NCBI GenBank assembly: GCA_018816625.1
Contig: JAHIVR010000108.1
Location: forward strand, 1 to 27,196
Direction: 5' to 3'
DNA length: 27,196 bases
Source of the DNA: Nanobdellota archaeon
GTDB taxonomy: Archaea; Nanobdellota; Nanobdellia; Pacearchaeales; GW2011-AR1
The notes below the pieces were generated by a model, which made no database searches, was not told the origin of the DNA, and saw only the letters and a list, made by a program, of their open reading frames with translations. Shown one piece after another: positions 2,501 to 9,082 of the stretch; the first letter of the stretch is position 1, and each line of letters begins with the position of its first letter. The position numbers were made by a program, and so were the translations under genes.

Positions 2501-2998
2501 TTAAATATTATTATTTGCCGAAGAGATCTTAGAAATATCTATCCTATTACTCTGATCCACCATCTTTGTATATTTTTGTAAAAGTAATGCAACACTCATT
2601 GTTCCAATATACATAGCTCTCTCTTCCAAAGTTCCGCAACTATCAAGAATTAAATGCCCAGCAACACCTGCACCTAACCAAGCAAAAGTCTTCATCTTGG
2701 CCTTTGCAAATAAAGCCCAAACAGCAGGTAGGACAACACCATACCTCAAAGAATGAGTAAAACTCCTGTGTTCTATTTGAGGAAGAACATCATTAGCCAG
2801 CAAAAAATCTCCAGCAAAATCAATATCTGGTAAAAATCCTCCAACAACACTCCTTACAGCAGTCTCAACCCTACCAGCACCAGGATAAAATTCTTTAGAT
2901 AAAAGATACCCTGTCATAACGTGCCCCATTAAATCAGCAGATGCTAAATAAGGATAATCCGCCATAGCCATTAAAGTTCCAGTAAGAGTAGCTACCAT
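2501..2998 (-). CDS. Metal-dependent membrane hydrolase (YdjM / LexA-binding inner-membrane hydrolase-like)
   Basis: Motifs GH..TG, GGFLPDID, HRSFTHSL and GHLILD with hydrophobic segments. The true start may be a downstream Met. Confidence 0.75.
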   Translation of the reverse strand: MVATLTGTLMAMADYPYLASADLMGHVMTGYLLSKEFYPGAGRVETAVRSVVGGFLPDIDFAGDFLLANDVLPQIEHRSFTHSLRYGVVLPAVWALFAKAKMKTFAWLGAGVAGHLILDSCGTLEERAMYIGTMSVALLLQKYTKMVDQSNRIDISKISSANNNI

Positions 2999-3042
2999 AG
3001 TTTCAAATCAAGAAGTAGCTTTTAAAACATTTCTATAAAAAC

Positions 3043-3109
3043 AAATGAGCCTACTCTAAACCGGCTACGCTTGGACGGAAATCGAATAGTTAGAAAAATG
3101 AGCCTACTC
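3043..3109. repeat. 14-bp duplication of the tRNA-Ile 3' end (AAATGAGCCTACTC at 3043-3056 and 3096-3109) enclosing mini-element copy B (3057-3095)
   Basis: Exact 14-bp direct repeat; the 39-bp insert contains GGCTACGCTTGGACG, 14/15 identical to the core at 9601-9615. Confidence 0.75.
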
Positions 3110-3219
3110 GGATTCGAACCGAGGACCCCTGCCTTTCTTAGAAAAACTAAGATACCTACAATCCTAACGGACCGCATTCATATAAGAGCAGTGCTCTGAC
3201 CAGGCTGAGCTATAGGCTC
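3099..3219 (-). tRNA. tRNA-Ile(UAU) with a 46-nt intron (3135-3180) at position 37/38
   Basis: Cloverleaf: acceptor GAGCCTA/TAGGCTC plus discriminator A, D stem GCTC/GAGC, anticodon stem CTGCT/GGCAG, loop CT-TAT-A|A, T arm CTCGG-TTCGAAT-CCGAG. Canonical BHB (CTTA:TAAG helix, bulges TA|T and AA|A). No encoded CCA. Confidence 0.93.
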
Positions 3220-3351
3220 CTGACTTATAAAACATAAATATCTTTCTATTTAAAGGTTTTTAGTTAGTTTTAAAAAGCATTTTTATCTCTAAGCAATATC
3301 AACTATATTAAAGGAAAGTTGAATGTCAAGAAAACCATAGGTTGTCTTACA

Positions 3352-3498
3352 GCCCCGTTAGTACAGAGGCCAAGTATGCTGCCCTTTCAAATGACGGCAC
3401 AAGTCGGCGTTTGTTGAGGAAACCTTGTGTTTCCGATTCAAATGGCACGACCATCATGAAGCACGGCAGTGACCCGGGTTCGAATCCCGGACGGGGCG
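3352..3498 (+). tRNA. tRNA-Glu(UUC) with a 74-nt intron (3390-3463) at position 37/38
   Basis: Acceptor GCCCCGT/ACGGGGC plus G, anticodon stem CTGCC/GGCAG, anticodon TTC at 3386-3388, T arm CCGGG-TTCGAAT-CCCGG. BHB: CTTT:GAAG helix with bulges CA|A and CA|C. Confidence 0.95.
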
Positions 3499-3532
3499 TA
3501 TAGCCTTTTTGGCACCCAAAGGAGATGAAGAA

Positions 3533-4483
3533 TTACTTATCTAGGTGACCACTTTTCTTTACTTTCTTCTTTTTTGTAGTCACCTCTTTTAAAGTTTTCT
3601 TATATTGTTTGATCAAGAATCTTAATGTAGTCTTAATATCATCTTGTTTGGAATACTTTTGAAGAGTTTGATAGTATTCCATTCTATCTTCAAGCATAAT
3701 GTTTATTGGAGGAGATTTATTTTTAAGAAGAATGAAATTAAGAAGCAATCTTCCAACTCTTCCATTCCCATCCTGAAAGGGGTGAATATGCTCAAACTGA
3801 TTATGCATTATTCCTGCAAGTGCTAAAGGTTTGAATTTATCTTTATTTTCTTTATACCACTCAATAAAATCCTCTAAATAATCTTTAAGTTCCTCCTTTG
3901 GAACTCCTGCATGAAGAATATGCCCTGCAGAATTTCTAACAACAACATTAACATTTCTGAATTTTCCTGCAAATGGCTTAGCCCCCTTGAAACATAACTC
4001 ATGTAATTTTAAAAGTAGTTTTATCGAGACATCTTCCTTAGTTTTTCTTATATAATTTACAGCTCCTGCAACACCCTTAGTTTCTACCTCTTCTTCATTT
4101 TCCGCTCGTATTTTTGAAAGAATCTCAGGAACTTCTTCTTCTGTAACAATTGATCCTTCAATTGCATTAGTATTATAAACAAAATCTTGTGTAAAAATCT
4201 CCCACTCTTTATCACTTAAATGGACAATGTCAATTTTATCACTATACTTGTTTAAAGTTTCAATCTGTTTTTTTGTCAAGGAAAATAAAAAAACATCCGT
4301 GTTAATTTTTTCCAGCAATTCCTTTATCTTTTTTTCGGCCTTTTTTCTGGCTTTTTCCAGTTCTTCCTTAGAAAGATTTGCTCCCAGATATTTTCTTATC
4401 TTTTCTACTCTTTCTTTATCTCTGTAAGAATGAACAAGATAATATTTTATTGATTTACCTGATTTTCTTTTTTCAATATACAT
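3533..4483 (-). CDS. Fic-domain protein (intramolecular-inhibition type) with N-terminal KYLG module
   Basis: Canonical HPFQDGNGRVGR motif (3749-3784); the N-terminal inhibitory motif TNAIEG matches (S/T)xxxE(G/N). Confidence 0.92.
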   Translation of the reverse strand: MYIEKRKSGKSIKYYLVHSYRDKERVEKIRKYLGANLSKEELEKARKKAEKKIKELLEKINTDVFLFSLTKKQIETLNKYSDKIDIVHLSDKEWEIFTQDFVYNTNAIEGSIVTEEEVPEILSKIRAENEEEVETKGVAGAVNYIRKTKEDVSIKLLLKLHELCFKGAKPFAGKFRNVNVVVRNSAGHILHAGVPKEELKDYLEDFIEWYKENKDKFKPLALAGIMHNQFEHIHPFQDGNGRVGRLLLNFILLKNKSPPINIMLEDRMEYYQTLQKYSKQDDIKTTLRFLIKQYKKTLKEVTTKKKKVKKSGHLDK

Positions 4484-4494
4484 AATATATCAAA

Positions 4495-4534
4495 GGTGCC
4501 CACGTTTATAAATATTTCTACTTTTGTGGTCACC
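4495..4534. promoter_or_regulatory. fic1 promoter: TATA box TTTATAAA (4505-4512) flanked by inverted repeat GGTGCCCAC / GTGGTCACC
   Basis: The TATA box lies 21 nt before the ATG at 4483; IR arms at 4495-4503 and 4526-4534 (8/9 match). Confidence 0.55.
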
Positions 4535-4548
4535 CCTACCCATACAAT

Positions 4549-4570
4549 CCATCTTGACAATCTTTATAAA
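4549..4570 (+). repeat. 22-bp repeat CCATCTTGACAATCTTTATAAA (second copy 6684-6705)
   Basis: 21/22 identity between the copies; ends in a TATA-like TTTATAAA. Confidence 0.75.
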
Positions 4571-4600
4571 ATTTAAAGATCACAACAAACTATAACCAAG

Positions 4601-4648
4601 TCGAGATAAAAAGAGTCCCATGGACTTGGTCTAGATCGTCTCGGATTC
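4601..4648 (+). repeat. 48-bp direct repeat, left copy, bounding the MNT-HEPN cassette
   Basis: 45/48 identical to 5484-5531. Confidence 0.9.
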
Positions 4649-4659
4649 TAAATATGTAC

Positions 4660-4691
4660 GTCTACACCACAAGATTTATATATTAGTAGAC
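4660..4691. promoter_or_regulatory. MNT-HEPN promoter: TATA box TTTATATA (4675-4682) inside inverted repeat GTCTAC-N20-GTAGAC
   Basis: The TATA box lies 21 nt before the ATG at 4704; perfect 6-bp IR at 4660-4665 and 4686-4691. Confidence 0.5.
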
Positions 4692-4703
4692 ACACAATAT
4701 TGT

Positions 4704-5168
4704 ATGGTATTTACAGAAATTAAAGAAAGAAACAAGAAAAAATATTATTACCGAGTTTTATCTGTAAGAAATAGTAGGAAAGTGGCAAAAAAACGAAAAT
4801 ACTTAGGTGTTGATTTATCAAAAAAAGACCTTCAGAAAAAAGAAGCGGAAGCTGATAAAATTTTAGGGATTGAAAATAAAAAAGAAACAGAAGCTCTAAA
4901 AAAAATAAAAACTCAAATTTTGAAAATTTTAAAGCAATACAAAATAAAAAAAGCAAGTATTTTTGGAAGTTATGCAAGAGGAGATTTTAAAAAAAAGAGT
5001 GATATCGATCTAATAATCCAACCAACTCCTGGAATGGGATTGGAATTTGTAGGCCTTGCATTAGAATTAGAAGATAAACTTGGAAAAAAGATCGATTTAC
5101 TTACATACAAAAGTATTCATCCTTTAATTAAAAAAAGTGTAATGGAAGATGAAATTAGAATAATATGA
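4704..5168 (+). CDS. mntA: Minimal nucleotidyltransferase (MntA-type antitoxin) with N-terminal KYLG module
   Basis: GSX10DXD motif: GS-YARGDFKKKS-DID; overlaps the HEPN gene by 4 bp. Confidence 0.9.
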   Translation: MVFTEIKERNKKKYYYRVLSVRNSRKVAKKRKYLGVDLSKKDLQKKEAEADKILGIENKKETEALKKIKTQILKILKQYKIKKASIFGSYARGDFKKKSDIDLIIQPTPGMGLEFVGLALELEDKLGKKIDLLTYKSIHPLIKKSVMEDEIRII

Positions 5169-5506
5169 TCAAAAATAATCCAAACACATATATTAAACAC
5201 ATTCTAGAAAATATAAAAGACATAGAAGAATTTTCTAAAGAATTAACTAAAAATAAAATATCTGAAGATAAACTAAGACAAAAAGCAATCATTAGATCAA
5301 TAGAAATTATTGGAGAAGCTGTTAAAAATCTTCCAGAATCATTTAGAAAAAACTACCCAAAAATCCCTTGGAAGAAAATTGCTGGAACAAGAGATAGAAT
5401 CATCCATCATTATTTTGGAATAGATTTGGACATTGTTTGGGAAATAATTAAAAAAGATCTTCCTGCATTAAAAAAGCAAATACTCGAGATAAAAAGAGTC
5501 CCATAG
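5165..5506 (+). CDS. hepT: HEPN / DUF86 RNase toxin (HepT-type)
   Basis: AIIRSIEIIGEA and PWKKIAGTRDRIIHHY (R-X4-H followed by Tyr); paired with the MNT gene. Confidence 0.9.
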   Translation: MIKNNPNTYIKHILENIKDIEEFSKELTKNKISEDKLRQKAIIRSIEIIGEAVKNLPESFRKNYPKIPWKKIAGTRDRIIHHYFGIDLDIVWEIIKKDLPALKKQILEIKRVP

Positions 5507-5531
5507 ACTTGGTCCAGATCGTCTCTGATTC
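5484..5531 (+). repeat. 48-bp direct repeat, right copy; supplies the last codons and stop of hepT
   Basis: 45/48 identical to 4601-4648; TAG here versus TGG in the left copy. Confidence 0.9.
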
Positions 5532-5557
5532 GGACGGGGCGTAATACCATTTTGGCA
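5531..5557 (+). repeat. Copy of the tRNA-Glu 3' end plus trailer (att-like)
   Basis: CGGACGGGGCGTA is identical to 3488-3500; 23/27 identity over 3488-3514. Confidence 0.8.
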
Positions 5558-5583
5558 TAATAGAGTGATGTATTTTTTCTAAT

Positions 5584-5624
5584 GTAGTACATAATAGAAA
5601 GATTTAAATAAGAGTAGTACATAA
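5584..5624 (+). promoter_or_regulatory. fic2 promoter: TATA box TTTAAATA (5603-5610) between direct repeats GTAGTACATAA
   Basis: Exact 11-bp direct repeats at 5584-5594 and 5614-5624; the TATA box lies 21 nt before the ATG at 5632. Confidence 0.6.
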
Positions 5625-5631
5625 CTAATCT

Positions 5632-6537
5632 ATGGTTACCGAAAAACAAATAGAAGTTAAAGGAAAAAAATACTGGATACTAATTCACTCAGTCAGAAAA
5701 GGGAATAAAGTTATTCAAAAGAAAAAGTATATTGGTAAATCCCTTCCTCCAAAAACTAGGTTGGAGCAGTTAAAAAAAGAATTCTTACAGGAACTTTCTG
5801 GAGACAAATATAAATATCTTTCTAAAGAAGATTTGGAAAAAATTGAGGAAAAGAAAAGAAAATATAAACAAGAATTAAAAAAACTAAGCAAAATAGAGAA
5901 AGAAAAAAAGCTAAATGAATTTGCGATTAGATATACTTATGACAGTAGTAAACTTTCGGGGATTAATGTTACATTAAGACAAACTTTTTTAATTCTAAAA
6001 GAAGGAATAATTCCAAAAGACTTTAAAAACTTAAGAATTGCCAAAGAAATCGAAAACCATGAAAAAGGATTTATTGCAATAACAAAATACAAAGGCAAAT
6101 TTGACATTAACTTTCTAAAAAAATTGCACAAGGTTCTTTTTTCTGGAATTGATGATACAATTACTGGCAAGCTAAGAAATGAACTAAAGAGAGATGTGAA
6201 AATAGCTGGAACCGCTTATGTGCCTCCTAAATGGACTGAAATAAAAAAAGAATTGGATGAATTTTTTAAATGGTATAAAGCAAGTAATAGAAAATTGCAT
6301 CCTTTAGAGCTAGCTTCATTAATACATTTAAAATTAATTTCAATACAACCTTTTGTTGATGGAAACAGCAGATTATCAAGATTGTTAATGAATTGGATTT
6401 TATGGAAAAAAAGTTATCCTTTAATAGATATTCCCATAGAAGACTTGGAAAATTATTATGATGCCCTTGATAAATACCAGATTGAAAAGGATGAAAGGCC
6501 TTTTGTAGATTATATTAAAAAGAAGTATTTATCTTAG
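5632..6537 (+). CDS. Fic-domain protein with substituted active site (His to Gln) and N-terminal KYIG module
   Basis: QPFVDGNSRLSR at 6346-6381 replaces HPFxDGNGRxxR; the inhibitory helix reads SSKLSG (no Glu). Confidence 0.88.
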   Translation: MVTEKQIEVKGKKYWILIHSVRKGNKVIQKKKYIGKSLPPKTRLEQLKKEFLQELSGDKYKYLSKEDLEKIEEKKRKYKQELKKLSKIEKEKKLNEFAIRYTYDSSKLSGINVTLRQTFLILKEGIIPKDFKNLRIAKEIENHEKGFIAITKYKGKFDINFLKKLHKVLFSGIDDTITGKLRNELKRDVKIAGTAYVPPKWTEIKKELDEFFKWYKASNRKLHPLELASLIHLKLISIQPFVDGNSRLSRLLMNWILWKKSYPLIDIPIEDLENYYDALDKYQIEKDERPFVDYIKKKYLS

Positions 6538-6782
6538 TTGGAATTTCCTCAGCTCTTTCTCATATGAAATTCTAATGTGCAAATCAAAAGAAGAAATCAA
6601 GAAACTCATAAAACAATCAGTAAAAAACAGAGAAGCCATGCCTTTATTGTTGTGGTTGTGTAAAGAATCTTGATCTATCACTCCCATCTCGACAATCTTT
6701 ATAAATAAAAGCAGTCACTTATAAAGTATCGGACTATTATCATCCGCTGTGAAAAAGTTGATCACACTAAAATCACAAGATA

Positions 6783-6804
6783 CTGCCCTTTACGGTCGGG
6801 GCGT
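6783..6804 (+). repeat. Degenerate tRNA-Glu remnant / distal att-like site
   Basis: CTGCCCTTT (6783-6791) equals tRNA-Glu 3379-3387; CGGTCGGGGCGT (6793-6804) matches the 3' end at 11/12. Confidence 0.5.
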
Positions 6805-7943
6805 TTATTCTCTTGATAAAAGACTTTCTAATCTAGAAATATAACTATCCCAGGTGTTCTCCCTTCTAACTTTCTCTCTAGCCCTATCAACCATCTCTCT
6901 TACAGAAGCAGGATTATCCTTAAAAAAGTTAAAAGCACTAACAATATCCTCAGATTTTTCCGAAGGACCAATAGTATAATCACTCCTACTAGTTATTGTG
7001 GGCAATCCAACATCCATTGCATCAATAACCGTCTTTGCAAAAAGGCCATCAGTAACCATTGGTTGAATCAAAACATCTGAAGCAAAATAATTCTTAAAGA
7101 AATCAATTCTCCCTTGAGGAGTTTTCTTATCAATCCAGGAAACCAAAACCACTCTTTCCAACAGACAGGATTCAACCCAGCACCAACAAGACTATCTTTT
7201 CCTTTTTCTCCAGATCCAAGAAGGATTAATTTAGTTGAGGGATGAGACTCCATAATATTACCAAAAGCATCAAAAAGCTCTCTTCCTCTTTTTCCAAGAC
7301 CTAATCTTCCATAATAAAGAAGGACATTTTCAGAGTCAAGCCCTGCTCTATACCTCTCCCCTTCAACCCTAGCACCATCTAAAATTTCTGAATCGAGCAC
7401 AGAAACATCCGAAACATTCTCAAAAACACCAACTCTTTTGTCAAACCCCAGTCTTTCTAAAGCAAGTTTATGTAATTCGCTTATTGCTAAAAGAACATTA
7501 GAACGCCCTATTGCTTTTAATTGAGACCTCTCCCTCTCGCTCATAACAAAATCAATAATCTGCCTCATCTCTCCTTCAGGCAGAGTCCCATCCAAGAAAG
7601 ATGGTTTAAGATGAGCTGACAAATAGAAATAAGGAATAACGGCATGAAGATTCATAACAATTTGCGATTCAGAATCAGCACTAATTCCTCCAAGAAGCCC
7701 ATCGTGTTCCCACGTGTGACTTTGCAAGTAATATGTTCCTTTTGTGCCTATAGCATCTGGAGAAACAATAGTTGGCTTTTCTGTATCAAGATCAAGCCTT
7801 TTTACCGGGCCTCCAAACCAATTAGCATAATACTCAATAGGATACCCCCTATCGGCCATTTGTCTAGCAAAAGCGAAAGCATGCTCAAAAGTACCACTAT
7901 TTTGTCTTTCAATTCCCAAAACAACGTGTCTTCCTTGTTTCAT
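6805..7943 (-). pseudogene. GT-B (GT4-like) glycosyltransferase split by an apparent 1-nt frameshift near 7165-7170 (or a sequencing error)
   Basis: Upstream frame: MKQGRHVVLG...LLYYGRLGLGKRG...LILLGSG. The downstream frame carries the C-terminal half (SDVLIQP..DGLFAKTVIDAMDVGLPTI...ENTWD). The frames join as GLNP-x-LLERV if one base is added. Confidence 0.75.
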
Positions 7944-8073
7944 CTTAACTTTCCTAATTATCACCAAAACATAATTTTCGGTTAAATTCAATCGAAAAAA
8001 TTTTTAACCGTTTATATATCTTTCCCAAGATTTTTCATAAAACCCTTATAAACCCCCACCACATTTATAAGAT

Positions 8074-8892
8074 ATGAGAAAAAGATACTCCTTTTCTTCA
8101 AGACACACAGGGCAGGCAAAAGATCCAAAAAACATTAGAAAGGAAAAGGCCAAATTTCCAGCAATACTACAAAAACTCCTTTACGAGGCAGACATAATAA
8201 TCCAGGTCTTGGATGCAAGATTTATTGAAGAAACAAGAAACAAAGATCTTGAAAAATACGTTGAAAAATCATCTAAAGGAATGATTTACGTAATAAACAA
8301 GTCCGATTTGGCAGAAAAAATAAAAGAAGTGCCAAAACCACACGCAATGGTCTCTTGTAAAAACAGGAAGGGTATACGAGTCTTAAGAGACAAAATAAAA
8401 ATACTCGCATCTAGAATTAAAAAAGACAAAATCACTGTGGGAATTGTTGGCTACCCCAATACCGGCAAATCCTCACTAATAAATCTCCTGATAGGAAAAA
8501 AATCAGCCCCCTCCGCTCCCCAACCAGGGTACACAAAAGGAGTACAGAAACTAAAGCTATCTGGAAACATCCTACTTATAGACAGCCCGGGAGTAATTCC
8601 AAAAGAAGAATACTCTTCAATTGAAGAGAACCTCATTACAAAACACACCAAGGTTGGATCACGTTCATATTCAAGCGTAAAAAATCCAGAGCAAATAATT
8701 GCTAGTTTAATGAGAGAATTTCCAAATCTGCTAGAAGAACACTATTCAATAGAAGCTCAAGGAAACTCAGAAATCCTTTTGGAAGAGCTGGGAAAAAGAA
8801 AAAATCTTCTCAAAAAAAGAGGGGAAGTAAACTTCGATAGTGCTTCAAGATTAATACTAAAAGACTGGCAGACCGGTAAAATCAAGGTTTAG
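8074..8892 (+). CDS. Circularly permuted ribosome-biogenesis GTPase (RbgA/YlqF family)
   Basis: Motif order G4 (NKSD), then G1 (GYPNTGKS), then G3 (DSPG); also QVLDAR. Confidence 0.9.
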   Translation: MRKRYSFSSRHTGQAKDPKNIRKEKAKFPAILQKLLYEADIIIQVLDARFIEETRNKDLEKYVEKSSKGMIYVINKSDLAEKIKEVPKPHAMVSCKNRKGIRVLRDKIKILASRIKKDKITVGIVGYPNTGKSSLINLLIGKKSAPSAPQPGYTKGVQKLKLSGNILLIDSPGVIPKEEYSSIEENLITKHTKVGSRSYSSVKNPEQIIASLMREFPNLLEEHYSIEAQGNSEILLEELGKRKNLLKKRGEVNFDSASRLILKDWQTGKIKV

Positions 8893-9082
8893 GATCAATC
8901 TCAAGATAAAATATTCTTACGGGAGAATACATCTTACACTTCCCATTGTTATTGGGGTCATGAGAACAAACAGAACAATCACCAACCCCCTCGCCTCTCA
9001 TAAAAGGAGGCATATAAACCTCCTCTTTTGGTCTAAAAACCTGATGAACGCATTTTACAGAACTCTCAAGTTCCATCCACAA
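8882..9082 (-). CDS. Small Cys-containing hypothetical protein
   Basis: Fills the gap downstream of elp3 on the same strand and has CSVC plus further Cys; no family recognised. Confidence 0.45.
   Translation of the reverse strand: MWMELESSVKCVHQVFRPKEEVYMPPFMRGEGVGDCSVCSHDPNNNGKCKMYSPVRIFYLEIDPKP

Follow-up and report, generated by a model that had tools for sequence, protein, structure and literature searches.

Three small toxin cassettes behind a tRNA-Glu gene of a Woesearchaeota-like DPANN archaeon as a probable tandem array of integrase-less integrative units

The DNA analysed here (the window) is the entire 27.2-kb contig C15 of a 1.13-Mb metagenome-assembled genome (MAG) of a Nanobdellota archaeon, whose closest named relatives are Candidatus Woesearchaeota MAGs. 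This MAG, designated G000, consists of 243 contigs, is 78% complete and has a G+C content of 35%. Contigs of G000 are given C numbers, family genomes G numbers and the other contigs or loci compared L numbers; the comparison set comprised 301 family genomes, public genomes and metagenome contigs. The subject of this work is the region 3499-6804, which follows a tRNA-Glu gene and for which an earlier note on this DNA had proposed three stacked repeat-bounded units. Analysis with Rfam and Pfam together with repeat alignments confirmed these units, whose cargoes are fic1 (unit A), the pair mntA-hepT (unit B) and fic2 (unit C). The window DNA is present in groundwater metagenome runs, and in Logan contigs of two such runs, which belong to different studies, the same arrangement extends across the repeat junctions.

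The cargo is of the toxin or defence type, with two Fic proteins and a MntA-HepT pair. The gene fic1 (3533-4483, reverse strand) encodes an N-terminal module termed KYLG followed by a Fic domain (PF02661, 1.6e-20) with a canonical HPFQDGNGRVGR motif. On the forward strand, mntA (4704-5168) encodes the KYLG module and an MNT nucleotidyltransferase domain (PF18765/PF01909) with the residues GSYARG..DIDL, and hepT (5165-5506), which overlaps mntA by 4 nt, encodes a HEPN RNase (PF01934, 1.9e-32) whose RDRIIH sequence fits the Rx4H motif. As judged by Pfam and these motifs, the two adjacent MNT and HEPN genes form one operon of the HepT-MntA (HEPN-MNT) toxin-antitoxin type. The third cargo gene, fic2 (5632-6537, forward strand), has a KYIG version of the module and, despite its Fic domain match, lacks the Fic/Doc motif HxFx(D/E)GNGRxxR that is present in fic1; alignment showed that its motif is degenerate (QPFVDGNSRLSR) and that the catalytic His is replaced. 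Both fic genes are paralogues with 31% identity and lie on opposite strands. Open reading frames (ORFs) and Pfam matches of 3499-6804 yielded only Fic, MNT and HepT domains and no integration genes. Each cassette was also said to have its own promoter and, in agreement with this, 8-mer TATA boxes begin at -29 from the ATG of fic1 (4505-4512, reverse strand), mntA (4675-4682, forward strand) and fic2 (5603-5610, forward strand). The same spacing was found in an Elp3-like housekeeping gene of the window, and a promoter scan of the window genes gave no TATA box for hepT itself.

The tRNA-Glu(UUC) gene (3352-3498, forward strand; Rfam RF00005, 47.9 bits) carries a 76-nt intron, and a second tRNA detected with Rfam, with UAU in the anticodon loop and a 47-nt intron, lies on the reverse strand at 3099-3219. 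ARAGORN called no tRNAs in the window, missing both genes because of their long introns, and annotation pipelines based on this program would overlook the tRNA anchor of the island. A 12-mer census located the first copy of the core (CGGACGGGGCGT), on the attL side, in the last 11 nt of tRNA-Glu (3488-3498) and the T that follows. Two further copies of the tRNA-Glu 3' end had been described and were verified, all in the forward orientation. Core copy 2 (CGGACGGGGCGTA, 5531-5543) is identical to the tRNA end at 13/13 positions, and core copy 3 (CGGTCGGGGCGT, 6793-6804), which marks the end of the array, matches the G000 tRNA at 11/12 and the family core at 12/12. The host variant of the core, with an A, is found in the tRNA and in copy 2, and copy 3 is the family-typical core. 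Downstream of copy 2, some 30 nt more resemble the sequence past the tRNA end. When one mismatch was allowed, the tRNA-end 12-mer occurred at four sites in the 1.13 Mb of G000, three of them here, in one orientation and within 3.3 kb, and the fourth on C86. The core copies far exceed chance and share the orientation of the tRNA; with cores at 3488, 5531 and 6793, the inserted DNA lies between direct repeats of this 3' end. Past position 6804 no further core or motif was detected, even at 3-4 mismatches. The array adjoins a glycosyltransferase-like gene on the reverse strand (6805-7991), whose stop codon abuts core copy 3 and which is split into the overlapping frames 6805-7161 and 7068-7991, being either a frameshifted pseudogene or the product of an assembly error.

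The ends of the units share a module made up of a motif (CGACAAYNTTTATAA), a spacer of 78-91 nt, the core CGG(A/T)CGGGGCG and a short distal arm. The earlier note had reported a 22-bp motif ahead of the tRNA end in two units, and this observation stands: the copies at 4549-4570 and 6684-6705 match at 21/22 positions and lie 78 nt (with cassette 2 removed) and 87 nt from the core. All arms read on the forward strand. In unit A, the distal (P') arm (3499-3530; ..TAGCCTTTTTGGCACCC..) resembles the sequence after core copy 2 and is 93% identical over 29 nt to the post-core arm of metagenome contig L144, and the proximal (P) arm (4536-4648) contains the first motif copy, with the expected core missing. 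Unit C possesses a distal arm (5544-5575) like the post-core arm in L136 and L146, and a proximal arm (6677-6792) with the second motif copy; in fic2-like contigs from other organisms, homology starts at 5576, immediately after this distal arm. The unit C arm and core (6677-6805) are 81% identical over 131 nt to metagenome contig L147 (record name ...Hain-H51...), whose cargo and downstream flank are unrelated to those of the window, the flanks differing on both sides.

The recurrence of this module was studied with a search pattern consisting of the motif, 65-95 nt and then the core. Among the 301 family genomes it matched at two places in G000 and at one in G235, which belongs to another genus, and the reversed control gave no matches. 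Public genomes added L136, another Woesearchaeota MAG, and L134, and metagenomes added 13 contigs, of which 10 are low-GC and genuine. The high-GC contigs L138, L139 and L149 were discarded as chance matches in an apparent bacterial gene. Module sites beyond the window are those on C86, in two other Woesearchaeota MAGs, on one Methanosarcinales-binned contig and on the 10 low-GC metagenome contigs; in G235 the module lies directly behind tRNA-Glu. Alignment of 14 units showed about 30 conserved nt (..ATC.a.tCcA.CtCGACAATaTTTATAAAt), of which about 12 lie upstream of the searched pattern. Beyond these the spacer varies, the core-proximal box is weakly conserved and the core CGGTCGGGGCGT is invariant. 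The distal arms after the cores are also related between units. The decisive result is that the right end of each unit is a homologous module that recurs elsewhere.

The conserved motif looks like a BRE/TATA promoter (TFB-recognition element and TATA box) aimed at the core. Strings similar to GACAA..TTTATAAA occur only five times in G000, two of them in the window; a role as generic promoter of this genome was rejected for this reason, and the motif may be an element-specific promoter. In addition, we considered whether the arm could be a structured RNA or an attC-like hairpin. This was not supported, since RNAalifold applied to the 14 arms gave a single weak 7-bp long-range helix (-5.8), in which no covariation is possible because the core is invariant.

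The mntA-hepT cassette is bracketed by a 48-nt repeat with copies at 4601-4648, inside the proximal arm of unit A, and 5484-5531 (forward strand; 45/48 identical). The right copy comprises the hepT tail and the core-proximal arm of unit B: it holds the last seven codons of hepT and the stop TAG (5504-5506), where the left copy has TGG. Thus, the repeat does supply the hepT stop, as had been claimed, but the likeness to integron attC sites drawn from this was not supported, because the repeat starts in native hepT codons. Its first four codons (LEIK, about 12 nt) continue the native HepT C-terminus, and LEIK is kept (..KKQILEIKK..) in another MAG (L150), whose mntA-hepT pair is 55% identical and has no repeat. 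Since LEIK is native hepT coding sequence conserved without the repeat, the left copy is a relic hepT tail plus arm, and these codons make it less likely that the repeat is a target-site duplication or an attC-like site. In other units, the repeat can be aligned with the part of the arm next to the core, and in L142 a segment of about 45 nt from this part, with core and distal arm alone, forms cargo-less mini-units of about 80 nt. The 48-nt repeat is probably the remnant of two sibling arms, each with a hepT tail; such arms may have recombined with each other, or two sibling units in tandem may have lost the core and distal arm between them.

That the array has no integrase in cis, as had been stated, was borne out by Pfam: PF00589 matches in G000 are confined to C149, C235 and C88, and none lies on C15. 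Nevertheless, related elements with the same att site encode an integrase. In G001, from the sister genus, two copies of the tRNA-Glu 3' end 8.7 kb apart enclose a TIR-domain gene and a 385-aa integrase, which matched PHROG_1 integrase (8e-18) and Pyrococcus abyssi XerA (PDB 4a8e; 9e-4). The N-terminus of this protein (MKIDPYKHKE..) recurs about 95 nt past the core in L134 (an 86-aa relic), L148 (a 99-aa relic), L146 (a 20-aa trace) and L142 (at least 219 aa, up to the contig end). G235 has a full-length copy, and 27 nt ahead of its ATG lies a box (ATCTCGACAAGATATATAAA) similar to the arm motif. In G000, contig C235 ends within a homologue that is 63% identical over residues 1-239; its start lies 96 nt past a tRNA reading as Gly(UCC), and the arm there (TAGACCCCTTTTGG) resembles that of the window. 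PF00589 matched this copy at 3e-5 (24.2 bits, under the cut-off of 27.1), and the G001 and G235 copies gave no Pfam match. The search of G000 for a recombinase, which the earlier note had advised, therefore led to a candidate trans-acting recombinase, which by its similarities would be a divergent tyrosine integrase. The genome also holds two XerA-like recombinases, on C149 and at C235:4664-5149. The arm as part of a split integrase of the SSV type was discarded, as the stretch from motif through core has no start codon or open frame in units U1, U2 and U4.

The syntenic tRNA-Glu locus, which lies behind a conserved divergent tRNA pair, differs in content among relatives. After tRNA-Glu, G023 has an Elp3-like gene about 350 nt on; G006 has a pair of genes of 85 and 95 aa (with the look of RHH/RelE-type toxin-antitoxin genes by eye alone) and one more gene ahead of the Elp3-like gene; G014 has 1.3 kb and then a GTPase gene; G001 has the 8.7-kb integrase element; and G015 and G008 have short tRNA-end copies. 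In the syntenic L148, the tRNA is followed by a 2.4-kb unit consisting of distal arm, integrase relic, three small ORFs, motif and core, and then by a homologue of the window GTPase gene. In G235 / L140, a RelA_SpoT-like cassette ending in motif and core precedes a degenerate core and a fic relic. The comparison of relatives proposed in the earlier note thus showed a locus that is not invariant and in which homologous cassettes stand in different order. Other repeats were seen at these tRNA genes. Copies of the tRNA-Glu 5' end (GCCCC.. 14-mers) lie just upstream of the gene in L140 (5491/5562/5663), L148 (169/242) and L037 of G008 (370/488), and could stem from a second kind of event on the 5' side. 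A GC-rich hairpin (..GTGCGCGAGAAAACTTCGTGTTCTCGCG..) ending in a tRNA-end copy is situated 3' of tRNA-Glu in L040 of G015 (about 860-1110) and L037 of G008 (about 650-730), and about three 57-nt repeats stand in tandem ahead of it in G015.

Contig C86 (L042) shares an overlap of 99.97% identity with metagenome contig L144, which lengthens it. The joined sequence, in whose assembly the anchoring tRNA is missing, has the order core; a unit with radical-SAM-like, 207-aa and TrmB genes; fic3; spacer, core and distal arm; and a RelA_SpoT gene, small alarmone synthetase-like, and is a second array of the same element family in G000. On C86, fic3 lies between 55/55-identical repeats containing the motif, and the 100% identity of this arm duplication suggests a recent event. 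The cassette order is opposite in the two genera: fic3 then RelA_SpoT in G000, and RelA_SpoT then fic in G235/L140. A scan of the whole of G000 found long direct repeats around toxin modules only on C15, C86 (55/55) and C74 (about 86 nt). The other direct-repeat pairs were paralogous coding repeats, and a general habit of repeat-flanked cassettes in this genome was consequently rejected. On C74 (L050), the repeats (about 1668-1754 and 3853-3938) flank fic4, with a KYLG-like N-terminus, and a PLD-like gene; both correspond to the truncated 5' part of a radC-like gene (MKILDLPEQNRPRERF..), and a radC-like gene is intact at 8324-9004 of the same contig.

The KYLG module, of about 45 aa, had been regarded as a feature with which each cassette starts. 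It is indeed common to the N-termini of fic1, mntA and fic2, but it does not define the cassettes, because it is widespread on DPANN proteins, apparently including aminoacyl-tRNA synthetases. No significant Pfam family was found for it. Its structure neighbours in the Atlas, which are leads only, comprise DPANN MNT, Fic, prolyl-tRNA synthetase (ProRS), glycyl-tRNA synthetase and other proteins, as well as a bacterial integrase SAM-like N-terminal domain. A 545-aa protein of a related Woesearchaeota MAG (L151, 3001-4638), ProRS-like by its Atlas structure row alone, is headed by a KYLG module 73% identical to the MntA N-terminus. It seems that in DPANN this module serves promiscuously as an N-terminal domain. 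KYLG-Fic genes were also tried as markers of such arrays and abandoned, since 14 distant archaeal loci had neither the tRNA-Glu core nor flanking repeats. The promoter TATA boxes of the cassettes (within 4484-4540, 4650-4703 and 5576-5631) are each flanked by short repeats, namely GTGACCAC/GTGGGCAC at fic1, inverted GTCTAC/GTAGAC at mntA and two direct copies of GTAGTACATAA at fic2, and these are possible operators for KYLG-module proteins.

From these data, the region 3499-6804 probably holds three miniature units without an integrase, arrayed in tandem and belonging to a family of tRNA-Glu-targeting integrative elements of Woesearchaeota-like DPANN. In an intact unit, cargo under its own promoter would lie between a distal arm of about 30 nt and a proximal arm measuring about 110-130 nt, followed by a 12-nt core equal to the tRNA 3' end, with the proximal arm made up of the BRE/TATA-like motif, the variable spacer and the core-proximal box. 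A divergent tyrosine integrase would recombine an attP site (P arm, core and distal arm) with the tRNA-Glu 3' end, and successive site-specific integrations at the tRNA would stack the units by accretion, which is their most likely origin. The integrase modules may then have decayed or been deleted, or int-less derivatives may have been captured, leaving att-bounded cargo that would move at best in trans or with a neighbour. In circles or tandems the arm promoter would face the integrase gene. We infer that an integrase built the array and that its units can still be moved in trans, the latter as the earlier note had suggested; the units may be satellite-like, or similar to cis-mobilizable elements (CIMEs), mobilisable in trans and with signs of decay.

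Several points weigh against this interpretation. The search pattern required motif and core, and the conservation of the units is therefore partly by construction. Unit A lacks the core, unit B lacks both motif and distal arm, and the catalytic His of fic2 is gone, so that part of the array may be fixed debris. The G000 integrase copy lies at tRNA-Gly, not at tRNA-Glu, and is cut by a contig end, and the A variant of the core in copy 2 is unlike what simple ordered integration predicts. Finally, none of the joints 4648/5532, 5543/3499 or 6804/5544 was found in the Logan contigs covering 2900-7400 from four groundwater runs (about 4-12x), although contigs cannot show rare forms.

It could also be that DPANN hold an active, integron-like exchange platform. 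A recombinase encoded elsewhere would routinely capture mini-circles that lack an integrase and have a single toxin or defence gene and an attP of about 170 nt, and would excise and reshuffle them at tRNA-Glu, the locus serving as a dedicated bank of defence or toxin genes. In that case the outward arm promoter would switch on whatever joins across the core, e.g. an integrase. The compact units with precise boundaries and varied cargo on a shared arm would agree with such a platform, as would the opposite order of homologous cassettes in two genera, the identical arm duplication around fic3, the cargo-less mini-units of L142 and the presence of an integrase in G000. However, the missing joints tell against it, with the limit just mentioned, as do the lack of a platform-linked integrase and the absence of some att parts in the window, and the integrase relics inside sibling units suggest decayed autonomous elements rather than a dedicated cassette system. 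We consider this explanation rather unlikely and keep to that of integrase-less derivatives accreted at the tRNA.

A true integron with structured attC-like sites, or an array of the IMEX type (integrative mobile elements exploiting Xer) using a dif-like site and the host XerA, is far more improbable still. The array is integrase-free, two XerA-like recombinases exist in G000 and the right 48-nt repeat provides the hepT stop. Nevertheless, there is no intI, attI or Pc (the cassette promoter of integrons), each cassette has its own TATA at -29 and fic1 even lies on the opposite strand, and the repeated core is the tRNA-Glu 3' end; for these reasons the array is not an integron. Moreover, at other loci the same core and arms stand in physical linkage with a dedicated integrase family, the 14 arms yield only the long-range helix mentioned above, and the 48-nt repeat begins within native hepT coding sequence. 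The integron-like classification of the earlier note had consequently to be abandoned, the boundaries being att sites of a tRNA-integrating family with integrase-bearing siblings. Equally hard to sustain, and if anything the least credible possibility, is a local segmental duplication, or chance repeats produced by slippage or unequal crossing-over, unrelated to mobile DNA. The paralogy of fic1 and fic2 and the closeness of the repeats could suggest it, but both genes are merely 31% identical and on opposite strands, the same arm and core accompany unrelated cargo and integrase genes in other genera and in metagenomes, and the 12-mer is nearly unique in G000.

DPANN genomes are tiny and their gene gain and exchange are little understood. 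This locus and its relatives define a compact exchange unit, formed by cargo, conserved arm and tRNA-Glu core, which is tied to a specific and poorly annotated integrase family. They also provide a searchable signature for flexible DPANN genes, such as those for Fic, HEPN-MNT and RelA/SpoT-like toxins and secreted proteins, and a concrete system in which the trans-mobilisation of integrase-less archaeal cassettes could be tested. If the cassettes were actively exchanged, the system, built from tRNA att sites, would be the functional counterpart of an integron; if the units were only decayed remnants, they would still be a clean archaeal case of tandem accretion at a tRNA. A literature search on DPANN, integrases and tRNAs gave no description of this element family.

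Finally, the array was compared with known systems. Integrons hold an ordered stack of small cassettes, each of which combines cargo with a recombination site of about 60-170 nt; the cassettes often carry toxin-antitoxin genes, and the integrase lies outside them. The window shares with them the ordered small toxin cassettes and an integrase that is not within the cassettes, and differs in having no adjacent intI, attI or Pc, in cassettes that are self-promoted and in sites that are probably duplex att sequences from a tRNA 3' end instead of folded attC. Archaeal plasmids and viruses of the SSV and pNOB8 types integrate into tRNA genes by a tyrosine integrase, with an attP core that is part of the tRNA and direct repeats at their ends. 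The tRNA-identical core, the terminal direct repeats and, in related elements, a probable tyrosine integrase are features in common, whereas the units of the window carry no integrase. The behaviour is not that of SSV type I, because the integrase is intact (unsplit) inside the G001 element.

The tycheposons of Prochlorococcus are tyrosine-recombinase elements at tRNA genes, flanked by partial tRNAs; they are defined by their integrase, usually have a replication module and measure 10-20 kb, and in the tRNA islands of these streamlined genomes successive integrations push older elements outward, leaving scattered integrase fragments and partial tRNAs (bioRxiv 10.1101/2020.12.28.424599). Islands at tRNA genes with partial tRNAs and integrase fragments are common to both systems, but the window units have neither integrase nor replication module, and host domain and integrase lineage are different. 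The streptococcal CIMEs keep attL and attR, have lost the integration genes, occur in tandem at a tRNA 3' end and are believed to depend for their movement on a related element that bears an integrase, with which or through which they would move (PMC5704250). Integrase-less, att-bounded units stacked at a tRNA 3' end are thus shared with CIMEs and with the accretion of integrative and conjugative or integrative and mobilizable elements (ICEs/IMEs). In contrast, the host of the window is archaeal (DPANN), there is no conjugation, the units are of 0.9-1.3 kb with one gene or operon and share an arm of about 110-130 nt with a promoter-like motif, and their mobility is putative. The array is best placed among the integrase-less, att-bounded derivatives of tRNA elements in tandem accretion, as a DPANN variant whose unusual features are the shrinkage to single toxin genes and the conserved arm.

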